The notes under the pieces were generated by a model, which was given only the letters and a program-made list of their open reading frames with translations, was not told where the DNA came from and made no database searches. Made by a program: the position numbers and the translations under genes. Of a stretch of 64,000 bases of DNA, positions 3,298 through 64,000 are shown one piece after another. The stretch's first letter is position 1; each line of letters starts with the position of its first letter. The stretch spans positions 41,879 to 105,878 of IMG/VR virus record IMGVR_UViG_3300036761_003779. One strand, given 5' to 3'. The stretch comes from a virus.

Positions 3298-3553
3298 CGA
3301 GCGCCTCCAGTCTCGTCTTCTTCCACTCCGCGATGTCACGGATCTCCGCCTCCAGCTCCCGGGCAACCCGCTCCGTCGCCTCCCGCCCCCGCTTCTCCGC
3401 GGCCGCCTCCGCCTCCAGGCGGGTCCGCTCGGAGTCGATCAGGCCGGCGCGGTCCACCGCCGGCGCCGCCTTCTTCCGGAGGAGAAGCCAAAGGCCGAGG
3501 AGCACCAGGCCCACGGCCCCGCCGCCCAGGAGCATCCAGCCCCACCAGGGCAT
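3179..3553 (-). CDS. i-spanin (Rz)-like protein
   Basis: MPWWGWMLLGGGAVGLVLLGLWLLLRKK N-terminal TM followed by a charged coiled coil; directly after the holin. Confidence 0.55.
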   Translation of the reverse strand: MPWWGWMLLGGGAVGLVLLGLWLLLRKKAAPAVDRAGLIDSERTRLEAEAAAEKRGREATERVARELEAEIRDIAEWKKTRLEALDADNAQKYRDMAGDPDALLRRLDEILGGALGRGDPTPRG

Positions 3554-3554
3554 C

Positions 3555-4256
3555 TCAGCCCTCCTTCTTGGCCGGCGCGGCCGCCGGCTGGGTGGCCGGG
3601 AACATCGCCACCTTTTCCGCGATGTCACGGATCTCCGCCTCCCGCCCCCGCTTCTCCGCGGCCGCCTCCGCCGCCGGCGTCGCCTTCGGGACCGCCGGCG
3701 CGGCGACCGCCATCGCGGACTCCGCCTCCGGGATCTTGGCCAGGATGAGGGCGCGGAGCTTCTCCTTGGCCTTCTCGGACCCCATCAGCTTGGCGTCCAC
3801 GCTCCGGATCAGGTCGAAGGCCCACTCCTCCTTCTGCGCGCCCGTGCTCTTAGGCTTCCCCTCCCCGAGGGCGGTCGACGCCTTCTTCTCCGCGTACAGC
3901 GCCGCCTTCCCGGCCAGGCTGTCTAGAGTCGCCAGGTCCACCTTGATCCCCAGCTTCCGCAGGAGCAGGAACCCGAGCGCGGAGATGACCGGGACGAAGA
4001 TGGCGAGCGCCGCGATCAGGAGGTCCACGAGGAGGGACTGCCACCAGCTCTGCTCCCCGGCCGCCTTGGGCGCCTCCGCCGCCGGCGTCGCCTTCGGGAC
4101 CGCCGGCGCGGCCGCCGGCTGGGTGGCCGGGATCATCGCCACCTTTCCCTCGACCTTCAGTACCGCCGCCGGCTTGGCATCCGGCGCCGCGTTGGCCGCC
4201 GGCGCCGCGGCGATAAGGAGGGACAGAATGGTCAGGACTACCAGCTTGCGTCTCAT
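3555..4256 (-). CDS. LL-H family holin-like protein with N-terminal signal/Pro-Ala extension
   Basis: AAGGAG SD; TM LLVDLLIAALAIFVPVISALGFLLL followed by LAGKAALYAEK...GAQKEEWAFDLI, the LL-H holin pattern. Confidence 0.6.
   Translation of the reverse strand: MRRKLVVLTILSLLIAAAPAANAAPDAKPAAVLKVEGKVAMIPATQPAAAPAVPKATPAAEAPKAAGEQSWWQSLLVDLLIAALAIFVPVISALGFLLLRKLGIKVDLATLDSLAGKAALYAEKKASTALGEGKPKSTGAQKEEWAFDLIRSVDAKLMGSEKAKEKLRALILAKIPEAESAMAVAAPAVPKATPAAEAAAEKRGREAEIRDIAEKVAMFPATQPAAAPAKKEG
3571..3704. repeat. Mosaic of four short duplicated segments
   Basis: 3571-3615 matches 4102-4146 (1 mismatch); 3616-3642 = 3327-3353; 3636-3672 = 3377-3413; 3664-3704 = 4072-4112. Confidence 0.85.
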
Positions 4257-4819: not shown

Positions 4820-7333
4820 CTACTCCTTCGGCCCGGCAACGATGATCTCGTCCCAGACCTCCATGTGGTCTACCTCGAAGCGGCGGACGTTCGTCCCCAG
4901 GACGCCGACCTGGCTCACGTGGAGGAAGGGCTGAACCCGCTTGTCCAGCCAGTCGGAGGCGCCCAGGCCGGCGAGACGGATATTCAGGGCGCTCACGGAG
5001 GACATCCCGGTCATCCAGTAGCTGATCGAGTTGACGGAGGTGTCCACCTCGAAGTAGAACTCCAGCCAGCCGGAGTCGTTGTTCGTGTTCCCGGAGGAGT
5101 CGAAGGTGGCCGCCGGTGCGCTGTTGTCGACCGGCCCGCCGGTTGAGCAGCGGGAGAACAGCTCCCAGTTCGCGCCGACGTTAGCGGTGTCATAGACCCG
5201 GAACTGGATGCACTCCGTTGTGGTCAGGCTGTTGAAGATCCCGAGCCCGTACCAGACGCACTGGTTGACCTGAATGGGGCGCGCCCGGGCGTAGAAGCGG
5301 AGCCGGCGGTAAACCGCCCCGGAGGTCCGGAGGATCCAGCAAGCCGGCCCCTCCCAGGAGAGCCCGTCCCCGGAGGCAATCCCCGCCGTGTCGATGTGGA
5401 GGATGTCCCCCTGACCCTGCATCCCGGTGCCAAAGATGTTCGTGTCGTTGAAGGAGGACGTCCCGCCGTTCCCCCAGGTTCGCGCCCACCACCGCTCGCT
5501 CCCCGGGAGCCCGATGGCCGACTCCGCGTAGTCGAAGCGGTCGACGAAGCGGTGGACGTCCGCCATCCGGCCGAAGGGCGTCCAGCGCATGATCTCCGTC
5601 CCGCGCTCGTCGAAGAGCCCAACCTGCCGGGTGGAGGGCTTCCCGAAGATGGGACCACTCGTCTGCTGCATTGGCTTGACGTTGAGCGCGTACTTGTCCG
5701 CCGCGCCCGACCCCTGAACCAGGGTCCGGAGGTCCAGGCCGCACTTCGTGTGAACCCCGGACTCCGCACCCACCGTCCCGATCCACTGCCCCAGTTGGAG
5801 GCGGCCACCCGGGCTCCCGTAGGCGGGCGCGTCGAAGTCGAGGCTCAGGAGGTCCCGCTGGTCCATCATCCCGGTCGTTGAGCTGATCCGGTTGTTCTTG
5901 GCGTTGACTAGCTTCCCGTAGCCGCGGCTCGGGGCAAGTGTGAGCATCGGCGTGCTGCTCCCGTTCCCGTCGATCCCGGGGAGGAGGAGCCCGAGCCAGT
6001 GGAGGATCGTCGAGGGTGCCGCGGAGGGCAGACCGTTGGAGAAGACCATGCGCGGCTGCATCACGGAAGCGACCTGACCGGTGAGTGCCGGCCAGGCCGG
6101 GGTGACTCCCGTCTGGAAGTCCCGGCATGCGACGGTGTTCGCCCCGACGCTGACGAAGGCGTACACGCCCGCGTAGGCGCCCGTCTTGAGCCAAATGAAC
6201 TGAACGTCCTTGTCCAGGTACCAGGCCAACGGGTTGGCGGAGGCGAAGGTGATCGTGTCCCCGGAGATGCTGCAGTTCTCGTTCCGGATCCCCCCGAACT
6301 CCTGGCAGAGCAGGAGCGGGACGGAGGAGACGTCCCCCATGAGGACCTCCAGGCTGAGCTGGAAGTAGTCGGTGCTGGCGAGCCGGCTGAGTCGGAGCTG
6401 CGCATTGTGGAGGTCGTCCGGTCCGGCGGAATCCGTGTTCATCTCCACCGCGCCGGCGTCCACCTCGATGGCGCGTCCGGAGCCCGCGGAGCCCGTACCG
6501 TCGTAGGCCAGGTCGAGGGTCGGCGGCATGAGGCCTGCCGTCACGTCGATCTGCCCCGCCGTGCTGAAGGCCACCGGCGTCCCGCCGGCACCCACGCCCG
6601 TCACCGAGCCGAGGTAGACGTAGGGATCCGTCACGCTCAGGTCCGTGTTCCTCCGGACCGTCACCCCGGTGGCCGCCGCCGTATAGTCGGTGGCCAGGAC
6701 GGAGGCGGAGCCGCTCCCCTGCCCGAGGAGCCCGGTCGTCACGACCACGTTTTGTCCGCCGGTCCACTGCACCGGGAGGTCCCGCTCGATGGCAACGTCC
6801 TCCTCCACGGTCTTCGGGGAGTTCAGCCACACCGTGACCTTCCGGCCGGCGTGGGAGACCCCGGACTCGAAGAGGGCGTCCACCACGAAGCGGAGCGTCC
6901 CGGCCACCTCCGTTACGCTGTTCGGGTTCCCGGAGAGCCCGATCCGGTCCTCCAGCATGTCGTAGTCGAGGAGCCCGGTCCGCGGGTTCCGGTCGATCCC
7001 CGTCGGGGTGAGGCAATGCCGCACGGCCGCGTAGTAGGTGACCCCCACCGTGTTCTGGAACTGGATCCCCGTCGCGTCCCCGGACGCGAGGGTGAGGATC
7101 AGGACGTGCCCCTCCCCGTCGAGGCACTCGACCGGGAGCGCGTCCACCTTGAACTTGTCCGCCCCGTCCGCGGAGAGGGTGGCGGTCCCGAAGACCCCGC
7201 GGCGGCCGCCAACCACCCGGTGGAGGGTCTCGTACAGCTCCTCTGCCAGGTAGTCAAAGAAGGTGTCCTTGAACCGCGTCTGCGGGAGGTGCCGCTTGTC
7301 CGCGAAGTTTGTCCTGAGGTTCCCGGTTGGCAT
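4820..7333 (-). CDS. Tail fibre / receptor-binding protein
   Basis: 837 aa, G/T/V-rich beta composition; TLDLAYDG..GSGRAI fibre motif; lectin-like C-terminus; follows baseplate genes. Confidence 0.7.
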   Translation of the reverse strand: MPTGNLRTNFADKRHLPQTRFKDTFFDYLAEELYETLHRVVGGRRGVFGTATLSADGADKFKVDALPVECLDGEGHVLILTLASGDATGIQFQNTVGVTYYAAVRHCLTPTGIDRNPRTGLLDYDMLEDRIGLSGNPNSVTEVAGTLRFVVDALFESGVSHAGRKVTVWLNSPKTVEEDVAIERDLPVQWTGGQNVVVTTGLLGQGSGSASVLATDYTAAATGVTVRRNTDLSVTDPYVYLGSVTGVGAGGTPVAFSTAGQIDVTAGLMPPTLDLAYDGTGSAGSGRAIEVDAGAVEMNTDSAGPDDLHNAQLRLSRLASTDYFQLSLEVLMGDVSSVPLLLCQEFGGIRNENCSISGDTITFASANPLAWYLDKDVQFIWLKTGAYAGVYAFVSVGANTVACRDFQTGVTPAWPALTGQVASVMQPRMVFSNGLPSAAPSTILHWLGLLLPGIDGNGSSTPMLTLAPSRGYGKLVNAKNNRISSTTGMMDQRDLLSLDFDAPAYGSPGGRLQLGQWIGTVGAESGVHTKCGLDLRTLVQGSGAADKYALNVKPMQQTSGPIFGKPSTRQVGLFDERGTEIMRWTPFGRMADVHRFVDRFDYAESAIGLPGSERWWARTWGNGGTSSFNDTNIFGTGMQGQGDILHIDTAGIASGDGLSWEGPACWILRTSGAVYRRLRFYARARPIQVNQCVWYGLGIFNSLTTTECIQFRVYDTANVGANWELFSRCSTGGPVDNSAPAATFDSSGNTNNDSGWLEFYFEVDTSVNSISYWMTGMSSVSALNIRLAGLGASDWLDKRVQPFLHVSQVGVLGTNVRRFEVDHMEVWDEIIVAGPKE

Positions 7334-59452: not shown

Positions 59453-59675
59453 CCGCGTTCCCGCCTTTCCGCCGCACGAGCCGCCGGAGGTACCAGAGCG
59501 CCTTCTCCAGGTCCTTCAGCTCCGCCTCCCCGCCCTTCCGGCCCGCGCGCGCCACGTACTTGACCACGTTCCCCGCGTGGAAGCCCAGCTCCCACGCCTC
59601 GATGGCGTCGATGACCTCGATCCCGCCCAGGCAGTAGTGGGAGGGGTGGTCGATCTCCCTGCGGTTCACTTCCAT
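59340..59675 (-). CDS. DUF3310 (SaV-like) protein
   Basis: IDHPSHY..IEVIDAI..GFHAGNVVKYVARAGRK..DLEKALWYL. Confidence 0.85.
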   Translation of the reverse strand: MEVNRREIDHPSHYCLGGIEVIDAIEAWELGFHAGNVVKYVARAGRKGGEAELKDLEKALWYLRRLVRRKGGNADEHNVDEGGRAGGRRASRGAGDGAGGPGVGRKGAPAR

Positions 59676-60346
59676 CCGAGCGCCTCCCGGACGTCCAGGC
59701 GCTCGACCTGGACCCCGTTCCGCTTGAGGATCTTCATGGCGTCCCCCGATAACCCGTAGCGGCTGTCGTAGGGCTCCGCAAAGACCACGCGCGCCACCCG
59801 GACCCGGAGGAACCGCTTGGCGCAGTCCCAGCAGGCGCCCGCCGTCGTGTAGACCGTCGCGCCCGCCGGCGTCGTCCCGTCCAGCGCGCACTGCAGCAGG
59901 GCGTTCTCCTCCGCGTGGAGGGTCCGGACGCAGTGCTCGCCCCGGATGAGGTGCCCGCCGCTCAGCTCACCGCCGCACTTGGGGCACTTCCCGGCCTGGA
60001 TCTCCGCCTTCCCGAAGCCCCGCTCGTCCGTCCCCTCCGGGAAGCCCCCGGACCAGTCCGCGTCGCAGCCCAGACACCTCAGCTCGAAGCAGTGCGGCTC
60101 CCCGGGCGGGCTCCCGTTGTAGCCCCCGGCGATGATGCGGTGCTCCCGGACCAGGACCGCGCCCACGCCGTGCCGCCCGGCGTCCAGGAGCAGCTCCGGC
60201 CCCCGGTCGCAGGTCGAGCGGGTGGCCGCCAGGTGGGCGTGGAGCATGAAGAAATACGGCCAGTCGAGCCTTGGAATCCTCAGACGACTCGGCTGTACGC
60301 CTTTCCTAACAGGATCGCGCGAACTGTACGAACGGAAACGCTCCAT
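59666..60346 (-). CDS. dCMP deaminase with inserted Zn ribbon; 5' end supplied by the HNH insert
   Basis: [42 protein letters not shown]; start codon uncertain (60346 or 60248). Confidence 0.88.
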
Positions 60347-60894
60347 TCTCGAGCCAACTTTCTATGAGATGTTGCACCCAGCGCGTAGGACGCGCGGATC
60401 TCTCGAACCGCCTCATCCGTCAACTTCCGGAGACTCTTCCTCTGGTCCGCGCTGTAGTGCCGCTCCCCGCGCGGGACCTTCTCCGGTGACGTCTGGGTAT
60501 AGTGCCGCTCCCCGCGCGGGACCTTCTCCGGGCGTACACGGGAGTAGTGGACGTCCCCGCGCGGGACCTTCTCCGGGTTCCGCCGCGTCCAATGGGCGTC
60601 CCCGCTCGGGTAGAGCCCCTTTGCCGCGGCGTCCGCGCAGTTGTCCACGTGGGTCCCAAGGAAGAGATGACCCGGGTTCACGCAGCGCTTGTTGTCACAT
60701 GAGTGAAGAACGAACGCCCCCTTCGAGATCTCCCCGCGGGAGAGGATCCAGGCCACGCGGTGGGCGCCCTCCAGCACTCCCCGGAATGCAAACTTCCCGT
60801 AGCCGCTCCGGAAGATAGCCGCCGTCCAGTTCCAGCACTCCGCCTCCCCGCCACGGATGTACTTCTCGTCGAACCTGGCTTGGAGCGTCTTCAC
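60280..60894 (-). CDS. HNH homing endonuclease (HNH_3 type) with tandem repeats and C-terminal HTH
   Basis: [40 protein letters not shown]; [23 protein letters not shown]. Confidence 0.93.
60455..60609. repeat. 45-bp tandem repeat (PEKVPRG(E/D)xHY), three units plus a partial
   Basis: Units start at 60455, 60500 and 60545, partial at 60590; core TCCCCGCGCGGGACCTTCTCCGG. Confidence 0.9.
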
Positions 60895-61043
60895 CTCCGC
60901 CCCTCCATCTCCCGCCGGAGTAGCTCCCGGACGAACTCAGACTTTGTACAGCCTAGCCGCTCGCACTCCTCCTCGAGCCACTTCATCAGAACCGGGGGGA
61001 GCCACGCAAATAGCTTCTCGATGTTCTTCTTTGGTCTTGTCAT
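60891..61043 (-). CDS. Ribbon-helix-helix (CopG-like) repressor, leaderless
   Basis: [46 protein letters not shown]; GTGA coupling to the HNH gene. Confidence 0.85.
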
Positions 61044-61078
61044 GAACCTATTATAGATACCTAGACAGGTTCTGTAAA
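61044..61078 (-). promoter_or_regulatory. Near-consensus sigma70 promoter TTTACA-N17-TATAAT with GAACCT/AGGTTC inverted operator
   Basis: -35 at 61073-61078, -10 at 61050-61055, ATG 6 nt later; inverted arms at 61044-61049 and 61067-61072. Confidence 0.85.
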
Positions 61079-61100
61079 GAAACGGAAGACGTTCATCTTC
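61076..61100 (-). terminator. Possible weak intrinsic terminator at the upstream edge of the insert
   Basis: GAAGAU-GAAC-GUCUUC hairpin followed by CGUUUCUUU. Confidence 0.4.
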
Positions 61101-61106
61101 AGAGGG

Positions 61107-61286
61107 CAGTCGCGGAACCCGGAGCCGCGCCTCCTCCCGCCCGCGCCTCCGCGCCTCGTCCAGGGCCAGCCGGACGGACTCCACGCTCCCGAGGTTGACC
61201 ATCAGGGTCCAGGGCGCCTCCGGTTTGGACGCCCCGCGCATGTTCGCGCCCGTCCGCGGGTCGTCCGAGAAGTCGGTTTCGCTCAT
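61107..61286 (-). pseudogene. Displaced original N-terminus of the dCMP deaminase, reading in frame into the RHH gene
   Basis: MSETDFSDD...EEARLRVPRL, then AT-rich promoter DNA with no stop. Confidence 0.55.
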
Positions 61287-62046: not shown

Positions 62047-62315
62047 GGCCGCGCCTCCCCCCGCTTCCGGGCGTTCATGGCGGCCCGGCACTCGTGGCAG
62101 TTCGGCTGAAGGTCGATCACGCCGTCCCCCATGTGCCGGAGCCCAACGCGCCCGACCGCCTTGGGGCGCCGGCAGCCCTGGCAGTAGACCTTCACGCGCG
62201 CCTCCGTCCCGCCGCCCGGGGTCTCCCGGAAGGTCTCCAGGAAGCGCAGGGAGATCTCGACGTCCCCGACGTGGATGCTGGTCCCCTCGACCCGGATCTC
62301 CGGTTTTCTACTCAT
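62043..62315 (-). CDS. Zn-finger hypothetical protein
   Basis: CQGC..CHEC. Confidence 0.55.
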   Translation of the reverse strand: MSRKPEIRVEGTSIHVGDVEISLRFLETFRETPGGGTEARVKVYCQGCRRPKAVGRVGLRHMGDGVIDLQPNCHECRAAMNARKRGEARP

Positions 62316-62793
62316 CCTTGTCCTCCTCCGGCTCGAACTCGGCCGCGACCCACGCGCAGTCCTCCTGGATGCCCTCGAGGCGCCCCAGCGTCCCGGGGAG
62401 GCGGTCCTCCCCGTCCTCATGCCTCCGGACCGCCCGGGCCATCTCCGCGTGCGCGAAGGTCCCGAGGGTGGCCCCGAAGACCAGCGCGCGCTCCCCCATC
62501 ACGCGGCACGTCAGGCGCGCCGCCTGGACCGTCTCGTGCTCCTCCGCGGTGAGCGCCGGGTTCACCTCGCGGACCTTCTCCGCCGCCCGGAGGAGGCTGC
62601 GGCAGGCCGCCACGAAGGTCCGGAGCGGGCTGTCCTCCGGCCCGCGCGCCACCACGGCCACCGGGATCCGATCCGGCCCGGTGACCACGGAGCACTCGAC
62701 CGCCCAGCCGTCCGCCTTGAGGTCCTTCACCAGCTCCCGCATCGCCGCCAGCTCCGCCGGCGTGAACGCGGACTCGGGCATCTTGTCAGTCAT
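62308..62793 (-). CDS. Hypothetical protein
   Basis: 161 aa, GGAGGAG SD. Confidence 0.6.
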   Translation of the reverse strand: MTDKMPESAFTPAELAAMRELVKDLKADGWAVECSVVTGPDRIPVAVVARGPEDSPLRTFVAACRSLLRAAEKVREVNPALTAEEHETVQAARLTCRVMGERALVFGATLGTFAHAEMARAVRRHEDGEDRLPGTLGRLEGIQEDCAWVAAEFEPEEDKDE

Positions 62794-63037
62794 CGCTCCT
62801 CCACTCGGCCAGGCGCCGCTCGAGGTCGTCCCGCTCGTCCCGGAGCGCCCGGTGGAGCGTGCCCGCCATGACCAGGTCCCGGACCAGGTTGACCACGCAG
62901 ACCGCGGAGACGTCGTCCCCGCGCGTCCGCGCCTCCCGGAGGAGGTGCTTGAGCCGGTTCCGCGCCTGCGCCGCGCGCTCCGCCGGGAGGAGGTCCGCCA
63001 GGATGATGTCCGAAATTGAGTTGGGGTCTTCCGCCAT
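62786..63037 (-). CDS. Hypothetical protein
   Basis: 83 aa, operon packing. Confidence 0.55.
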   Translation of the reverse strand: MAEDPNSISDIILADLLPAERAAQARNRLKHLLREARTRGDDVSAVCVVNLVRDLVMAGTLHRALRDERDDLERRLAEWRSDD

Positions 63038-63065
63038 GCTCAGGGGTAGGCGGAGATGAGCGGAC

Positions 63066-63608
63066 TCAGCCGCAGCCGGTCGTCGTCCCGCAGGTGAGGG
63101 CGTTCGAGACGTGCTTCCAGATCTGCCGATTGGCTATCCGGTCCACCGTCCGCCGATTGATCCCCACGGACTCCGCGATAACGCGCCGCGACTCAGAAGG
63201 AAGGCGGAGGAGAACCTCCCGCACGCGGTCCTCGCTCATCTTCGAGGCCCCATTCCGCTCCCCATGCGCCGCCCGCTCCGGATGGAGCCGGAGTCCGTGA
63301 CGTTCCCCGCGGACGTGGACCTGCCTCCCCTTGGCCACGCAGTCCCGGACGTTCTCCGCGTGGGTCCCCGGGATCAAGTGGCTCGGGTTGCAGCACGGTG
63401 GGTTGTCACACGTATGGCGGACCGCCTCCGCGTCCGTCGGTCCGAAGGTCAGTTCGTAGGCCATGCGGTGGGCGCCAACCTCCCGCCCGTCCCGGAAGAC
63501 CCGCCCATATCCCTTCTTGCTCCGCAGTGCGGTCCAGAGCCAGCAGGCGTCCGGTCCCCCGCTCCGGTCCACGCGGCTCCAGAAGTCCGAGTTGGGTCTC
63601 CTACGCAT
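63066..63608 (-). CDS. HNH homing endonuclease (HNH_3 type) ending in the captured RNR C-terminus
   Basis: DACWLWT..GYG..AHRMAY..VRHTCDNPPCCNPSHLIPGTHAEN; start is the TAATG overlap with the RNR stop; ends LTCGTTTGCG. Confidence 0.93.
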   Translation of the reverse strand: MRRRPNSDFWSRVDRSGGPDACWLWTALRSKKGYGRVFRDGREVGAHRMAYELTFGPTDAEAVRHTCDNPPCCNPSHLIPGTHAENVRDCVAKGRQVHVRGERHGLRLHPERAAHGERNGASKMSEDRVREVLLRLPSESRRVIAESVGINRRTVDRIANRQIWKHVSNALTCGTTTGCG

Positions 63609-64000
63609 TAGCCGCATCCCGTTGTAGTTCCGCATGTCAAACACCTATGGCAGTTCCCGTTTGGTTCCGTGATGGCGCCGCAGTTCGAGCAGGGCGGCCC
63701 GGAGTCGTGGATCCGCCGCGTCACGTGCTCGACCGCCGCCTCGAGCGCCTCCGCGACCGTGGCGCCGCCCGCGGGCTTCTCCGCCGCCCCGAACCGCCCA
63801 CCCGGGAAGCGCCGCTCCACCCAGCGGACCAGGTAGTCGAGCGGGGAGGTCACCGCGCCGATGTCCGGGTTGTCCGAGTAGCCGAAGGGCTCGAAGCGCG
63901 TCCGCCGGAACTTCTCCGCCAGGTCGTCCCAGGGGACCCCGTACTGGAGCGCAATCGAGATCGAGGTGGCCCAGGCGTCCATGAGGCCCCGGACCGTGCT
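63608..64000 (-). CDS. nrdJ: Class II (B12-dependent) ribonucleotide reductase, C-terminal TSCPD and Zn-ribbon region (partial)
   Basis: STVRGLMDAWATSISIALQYGVP..KF..TRFEPFG..TSPLDY..CSNCG..NGNCHRCLTCGTTTGCG. Confidence 0.85.
   Translation of the reverse strand, partial: STVRGLMDAWATSISIALQYGVPWDDLAEKFRRTRFEPFGYSDNPDIGAVTSPLDYLVRWVERRFPGGRFGAAEKPAGGATVAEALEAAVEHVTRRIHDSGPPCSNCGAITEPNGNCHRCLTCGTTTGCG

Follow-up and report, generated by a model that had tools for sequence, protein, structure and literature searches.

A free-standing HNH endonuclease gene in the 3' end of a phage nrdJ gene, with a probable respelled replacement for the displaced gene end

What becomes of a ribonucleotide reductase when an endonuclease gene is inserted within the codons for its C-terminal cysteines? 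This question is raised by the 3' end of nrdJ, the gene for a class II, B12-dependent enzyme, in an uncultured virus with a 105,878-bp record, the last 64 kb of which (hereinafter, the window) were analyzed; the sequence occurs in sediment metagenomes. The ends of the record cut nrdJ, and joining the end to the start yields one intact open frame of 886 aa that terminates in the tail discussed here; the genome, despite being classed as linear, is therefore circular or circularly permuted. The product gives an equivalog-level match to the NCBIfam profile NF005122 (1026.7 bits, cut-off 859). Its nearest counterpart in an isolated phage is 44% identical, and its closest relative, encoded by the 105-kb contig L086, is 74% identical; the C-terminal 130 aa have no close relatives among viral contigs. 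In a blastn search of the region against isolate phages, the sole match was a 94-nt stretch of the HNH gene, in Arthrobacter phage Auxilium.

Table 1. Features of the nrdJ 3' end and of the nearby deaminase locus, in window positions
Feature	Positions	Strand	Remarks
Cluster of 4 nucleotide differences linked to the HNH-free allele	63684-63688	-	In X1 and X2; TCG AAC to GCC CTC, changing CSNC to CALC in the first Cys pair (our codon reading)
nrdJ, 3' part; class II B12-dependent ribonucleotide reductase	63608-64000	-	Rest at G000:C1:1-2268
Low-GC3 replacement patch	63608-63667	-	Last 19 nrdJ codons plus TAA (E P N G N C H R C L T C G T T T G C G, stop); GC3 10/19
T1, functional tail copy, read within nrdJ	63608-63640	-	LTCGTTTGCG and stop; TTG ACA TGC GGA ACT ACA ACG GGA TGC GGC TAA
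HNH-free allele, breakpoints	63087-63630	.	63630 joined to 63087, skipping exactly 542 nt; TGCGG (5 nt) fits either side
HNH_3 plus helix-turn-helix homing endonuclease ORF	63066-63608	-	180 aa from ATG 63608; 189 aa from ATG 63635 (gene caller's choice)
T2, displaced native-style tail plus TGA	63066-63098	-	Last 10 codons of the HNH ORF, in the original frame; CTC ACC TGC GGG ACG ACG ACC GGC TGC GGC TGA
83-aa ORF	62786-63037	-	No Pfam match; between T2 and a conserved 161-aa ORF; absent from L086
RHH fusion ORF	61286-60891	-	N-terminus matches residues 12-41 of the uninterrupted deaminase of L086
HNH_3 ORF of the deaminase element	60894-60280	-	Within the element 60266-61286
dCMP deaminase ORF	59666-60346	-	Starts at 60346; matches residues 34-239 of the L086 deaminase

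The tail of this NrdJ contains six cysteines (CSNC...CHRC..C....GC), and the pattern CSNC-x9-CHRC-x2-C-x5-C is found in most of the 78 relatives' tails listed. In enzymes of this NrdJ type, the six C-terminal cysteines bind zinc and transfer electrons to the active site, and are needed for turnover (PMC5704485). The insertion site lies after CHRC, in the stretch that encodes the fifth and sixth cysteines, so that, without a replacement tail, an insert at this position would be harmful.

The tail is, however, encoded twice. The two copies, T1 and T2, are spaced by 542 nt: nrdJ ends in ...CHRC LTCGTTTGCG TAA, and the next ORF ends in ...WKHVSNA LTCGTTTGCG TGA. As the first-pass annotation had reported, the copies encode the same 10 of 10 amino acids, each followed by a stop codon, and differ at 9 of the 33 nucleotides; the differences comprise 8 synonymous changes spread over 7 of the 10 sense codons and TAA in place of TGA, and the longest identical run is 7 nt. 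The edges of the repeat are sharp, given that the 30-nt flanks outside of the two copies match at only 7/30 and 8/30 positions, and T2 is followed directly by the downstream flank. Two further claims of that annotation hold as well: the nrdJ stop and the HNH start overlap in TAATG (TAA 63610-63608, ATG 63608-63606), and the HNH ORF reuses the old nrdJ stop, ending at the TGA that follows T2. A six-frame scan for 8-mers, run over the complete 105,878-bp genome, detected no other repeat that is conserved in its peptide but not in its DNA sequence. Separately, the peptide-repeat scan returned direct repeats at the DNA level, identical in all frames, at window positions 3327-4130 and 14883-14925/15536-15578.

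The ORF that ends in T2 matches the Pfam family HNH_3 (PF13392; E = 3e-9, 36.8 bits, cut-off 24.8), and its match to HTH_23 is weak and below the cut-off. The HNH core motif H..CDNPPCCNP.HL..GT...N..D is intact; residues H65, C67, D68, N69, C72, C73, N74, H77, G81, N86 and D89 are invariant in the alignment of 28 homologs and also in the 6 paralogs. A search of the PDB with the HNH sequence gave no match. The AF2 model has a mean pLDDT of 85, with 62 in the last block, the T2-encoded end, and its best fold match in the PDB, a weak one, is I-HmuI (1U3E; E = 0.0096, TM 0.32), followed by I-PpoI and Smad MH1, all His-Me fingers. The genome contains six HNH_3 paralogs, 33-70% identical (G000:C1 5214-5660, 8013-8492, 10622-11080 and 13277-13810; window 60280-60894 and 63066-63608). 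The paralog at 5274-5633 shows 81% DNA identity to the nrdJ-linked HNH gene over 213 nt. A scan for promoters and terminators across 62700-64000 found none. An intein or a self-splicing intron was considered and rejected: a stop codon and a change of frame separate nrdJ from the HNH ORF, and the Rfam search was blank (E<=1, 62500-64000).

Homologs of the HNH protein match only up to query residues 164-168, and most of them end 0-1 residue after the motif W-x-H-V/I-x; because they mostly stop about 12 residues earlier, residues 169-180 (NA plus LTCGTTTGCG) lack a counterpart in the family. This fusion of the native-style T2 beyond the usual stop of the family supports the proposed capture of the original tail by the nuclease: judging from the sequence, the HNH ORF apparently ran into the nrdJ tail and uses the stop codon of nrdJ. 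A word search (proteins of 99-315 aa, 5.8 billion proteins) recovered the fused tail only from the window's own protein, and none of the best 80 relatives of the HNH protein adjoins an nrdJ-type tail. As no other protein with the fused tail was found, the spread of the nrdJ-linked HNH element is undocumented.

The two copies are spelled in different styles. Gene-wide, the GC3 of nrdJ is 0.955, and T2, with GC3 of 10/10, follows the native codon usage, whereas in the patch that ends the functional gene (63667-63611), GC3 is 10/19 (0.53) against 18.2 expected for the same amino acids from nrdJ's own codon use (P<5e-5). Elsewhere in the gene, GC3 this low occurs in 0 of 868 windows, so the run of AT-rich codons noted in the first pass, extending up to ~63667, that is, 27 nt upstream of the repeat, is real. 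Low GC3 is not general for nrdJ tails, given that 17 of the 22 high-GC relatives have ordinary ones. The relatives do not identify the native copy because T1 and T2 are equally distant from the L086 tail (22/33 and 20/33 identical positions, respectively, by our count).

Evidence from natural populations comes from Logan contigs of four sediment metagenomes placed on positions 62300-64000; these are assemblies, not raw reads, and the record itself may derive from one of the samples, X1. In these metagenomes, a single phage population contains both the HNH-bearing and the HNH-free allele. In X1, a 55-nt junction unitig (depth 11.5) lies beside an HNH-bearing unitig, 63063-63659, with 0 differences from the window (depth 7.8), and the unitig lengths are, by our inference, those expected of a k=31 bubble with the breakpoints given in Table 1. 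In X2, where the depths of the HNH-free and HNH-bearing alleles are 5 and 2.6, a 508-nt contig (record 10) spans the 63630|63087 joint, with flanks of 118 and 390 nt and one base difference in the 390 nt; contigs from X4 also bridge the HNH/T2 junction. The 63630|63087 joint is in frame, leaving nrdJ intact with the same tail peptide. The spelling of this tail is a hybrid, AT-rich through TTG ACA TGC GG and then GC-rich, G ACG ACG ACC GGC TGC GGC TGA. Over 63630-63683, the HNH-free allele is identical to the window. The 83-aa ORF is present in the HNH-free allele too and thus lies outside the element. No fully native (sensitive) tail allele was seen among these contigs. In L086, the nrdJ stop is followed by ~80 nt and then by a homolog of the window ORF 62308-62793, with neither the HNH gene nor the 83-aa ORF (blastn). 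The HNH_3 profile match, the closest relative without the insert and the natural HNH-free allele all support an HNH insertion in the nrdJ 3' end, as had been proposed.

Contigs of X1 and X2 contain yet another joint, 63142>63378 (depth 37 and 25), which skips 235 nt inside the HNH gene; because one of its sides is only 28 nt long, this joint was set aside as probably derived from a paralog or another organism, although it could be a deleted HNH variant.

The claim that the AT-rich gene end was supplied by the element fared less uniformly when nrdJ 3' ends with and without the HNH gene were compared. The last 7 codons and the stop indeed differ, whereas the AT-rich left half of the patch (63667-63630) is retained in the HNH-free allele, and the L086 tail has low GC3 too. 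Because the left half is kept, a difference between the alleles is demonstrated for no more than the last 7 codons and the stop, and the left half may be resident rather than element-borne. Nevertheless, the HNH-free allele is most simply explained as the product of loss by recombination between T1 and T2, given that its codons turn from AT-rich to GC-rich precisely at the joint. The alternative is that the hybrid tail represents the original, empty state of the site, its AT-rich 63667-63630 segment being resident, and that the insert consists of the 542 nt between the TGCGG repeats. On its 5' side, this insert would have brought along a replacement for the last 7 codons and the stop, and on its 3' side, 11 nt (CTC ACC TGC GG) acquired from an earlier host gene. 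This scenario, which we regard as rather unlikely, would fit the abundance of the HNH-free allele, at least equal to that of the HNH-bearing one in both X1 and X2, its identity to the window next to the joint, and the low GC3 of the HNH-free L086 tail. An ancestral allele, however, would have no reason to change from AT-rich to 7/7 GC3 at the very point of a later insertion (P ~0.01 on 7 codons, our estimate), a change that is automatic in a T1 x T2 recombinant; besides, both blocks are compositionally coherent in the HNH-bearing allele, and the synonymous choices of L086 agree with those of T1 at 5 of the 16 codons for the same amino acid, which is the chance level, compared to 0.67 in the gene body.

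At a distance of 2 kb, a second HNH element of this genome is lodged within the dCMP deaminase gene, in its 5' end, with a layout that mirrors that of the nrdJ element. Here, the native N-terminus of the deaminase, up to RLRVPRLP and with GC3 of ~0.95, is fused to the RHH ORF, and the restarted deaminase overlaps the 3' end of the HNH gene. The sequence RLR(V/I)PRL is accordingly encoded twice, GC-rich in the displaced piece and as a low-GC3 RLRIPRL in the functional deaminase.

We consider it probable that the nrdJ locus harbors a free-standing HNH_3 homing element, with an element-borne, respelled tail that keeps NrdJ whole and with the native tail captured by the HNH frame. Under this scenario, the element would occupy a coding site in nrdJ without splicing; its 5' side would be a synonymous, compositionally foreign nrdJ end with its own stop, thanks to which NrdJ would be made complete; and the native end would be pushed downstream, where the HNH frame would enter T2 and take its stop. 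By analogy with the WHO and mORF elements discussed below, the enzyme would nick or cut tails of the native type in co-infecting relatives. With the HNH-bearing genome as the template, repair would then rely on the nrdJ body, on one side, and T2 with the downstream flank, on the other side, as homology arms, and the respelled T1 would protect the carrier from its own enzyme. As the first-pass annotation had also proposed, HNH translation may be coupled to that of nrdJ. The HNH-free allele with the hybrid tail would arise by recombinational loss between T1 and T2; with no identical run longer than 7 nt in the two copies, such repeat-mediated loss is proposed to be limited.

The odd codons of the patch could also have a different origin, although we find it improbable that this is the main one, namely, the HNH ribosome-binding site, start codon and first residues overlaid on the end of nrdJ, as opposed to immunity to cleavage. 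The pentamer AGGTG at 63648-63644, produced by CAT AGG TGT, precedes by 6 nt the HNH-frame ATG at 63635, which is made by ACA TGC; the ATGs at 63617 and 63608, produced by GGA TGC and TAATG, respectively, likewise depend on unusual codon choices. The gene caller selected the longer form of the protein, and the true HNH start is uncertain because of the in-frame ATGs at 63617 and 63635. The deaminase element similarly overlaps the end of its host gene with the HNH ORF. The AT-rich codons GAA and CCA (63667-63662), however, lie upstream of any such signal, and dual coding and cleavage immunity are compatible with each other; going by the overlapping frames, dual coding may contribute to the odd spelling of the patch. 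Less credible still to us is a one-off illegitimate recombination that placed the HNH gene in nrdJ, with a nuclease that does not target nrdJ and a polymorphism that reflects only a later deletion. Such an accident would agree with the finding of no other copy of the nrdJ-linked element at nrdJ elsewhere, but would hardly yield a duplicate that is exact as peptide and saturated with synonymous changes, along with capture in frame and a precisely placed replacement stop; furthermore, the layout recurs at the deaminase gene of the same genome, and nrdJ tails attract other endonuclease genes, as in the L101 locus described next.

L101 (6020-6820) belongs to an unrelated phage, in which a GIY-YIG/NUMOD homing endonuclease gene begins 8 nt past the nrdJ tail. 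The tail peptide of its nrdJ is identical to that in the window (CLTCGTTTGCG and stop), with a significant dip in GC3 (8/19 vs 13.9 expected) and no displaced copy. In L157 (6340-6534; nrdJ 43% identity), the tail AFCLTCGATTGCG, with its stop, recurs after a further 106 nt; 10 synonymous differences distinguish the two copies, of which the upstream one has low GC3 and the downstream one is native-like; there is no endonuclease gene between the copies, and this duplicated tail may be the scar of a lost element. Low-GC3 tails without an adjacent endonuclease gene were found in L086 (6070-6128, P=7.5e-4) and L144 (P=0.03), and may be footprints of past occupancy or resistance alleles. A pattern scan for TRATG-coupled nrdJ tails identified 5 real ones, 0/5 of which are followed by an endonuclease gene; among 80 metagenome nrdJ loci, none is closer than 60% identity, and none has a second tail or an HNH gene; and a tblastn search of 158 nrdJ loci, in which all six HNH paralogs and the GIY-YIG protein of L101 served as queries, recovered only L101 itself. 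Tentatively, and with less confidence than we place in the nrdJ element itself, we suggest that the last ~20 codons of nrdJ could be a shared homing hotspot for unrelated endonucleases (HNH here, GIY-YIG in L101), the respelled low-GC3 tails (L086, L101, L144, L157 and the hybrid allele) being lasting footprints or resistance alleles of cycles of invasion and loss, with a history of the tail separate from that of the rest of the gene.

Among phages, the nrdA gene of Aeh1 is split by mobE. SegF, SegG and MobE of T4 are free-standing phage endonucleases that engage in intronless homing (review PMC2988022). The nrdJ element resembles these T4 and Aeh1 cases in that a free-standing phage endonuclease gene resides beside or inside a gene of nucleotide metabolism, and in its proposed spread by double-strand-break repair accompanied by co-conversion of flanking markers; unlike the nrdJ element, the T4 and Aeh1 genes are intergenic or split the host gene into two polypeptides, and carry no duplicated, respelled gene end. 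I-HmuI (1U3E), to go by the model and its weak fold match, would share with the nrdJ-linked protein an arrangement in which a helical DNA-binding domain comes after the His-Me finger nuclease domain; in contrast to the latter, it is intron-encoded, and the sequence similarity between the two is undetectable.

The closest parallels are found in fungi. In the WHO elements at the yeast FBA1 locus, the unit consists of an endonuclease gene together with a resistance-conferring 3' end located upstream, and the second homology arm is provided by the displaced fragment (Coughlan et al. 2020, PMC7282813); for WHO6, allele-specific cleavage and resistance have been shown by experiment (PMC7282813). The shared features are an endonuclease gene immediately 3' of the full-length host gene, a displaced 3' fragment downstream, coexisting alleles with and without the element, and the lack of splicing (PMC7282813). 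The nrdJ element differs from WHO in that it is an HNH_3 gene carried by a phage, a displaced piece of only 33 nt is read in-frame as the C-terminus of the nuclease, and the replacement end overlaps the nuclease start. Similarly, the mORF gene hybrids of fungal mitochondria (atp6 of Allomyces; atp6, atp9, cox2 and nad3 of Glomus) combine an inserted C-terminus, an endonuclease ORF and the native C*-terminus, with copies that have diverged in DNA and remain nearly identical in protein (PMC3630166). Unlike the nrdJ element, the mORFs are LAGLIDADG or GIY-YIG genes in organelle genomes, with much longer duplications and a native copy that is clearly closer to the relatives. No description of the replacement-tail layout in phages was found in the open-access literature. 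The WHO/mORF architecture is represented here by an HNH gene in a phage, and the natural HNH-free allele is newly found.

By bringing a spare gene end with it, a phage endonuclease gene apparently can reside in an essential gene with no need for an intron or intein. The pair of filled and empty alleles from the same sediments makes homing, resistance and loss directly testable. Such elements yield chimeric ORF ends, such as an HNH protein with a ribonucleotide reductase tail and an RHH protein with a deaminase N-terminus, and the resulting mosaic gene ends can mislead annotation, phylogenies of ribonucleotide reductases and analyses of codon usage. Conversely, a sharp dip in codon usage at the end of a gene can serve as a footprint by which to find more elements of this kind.
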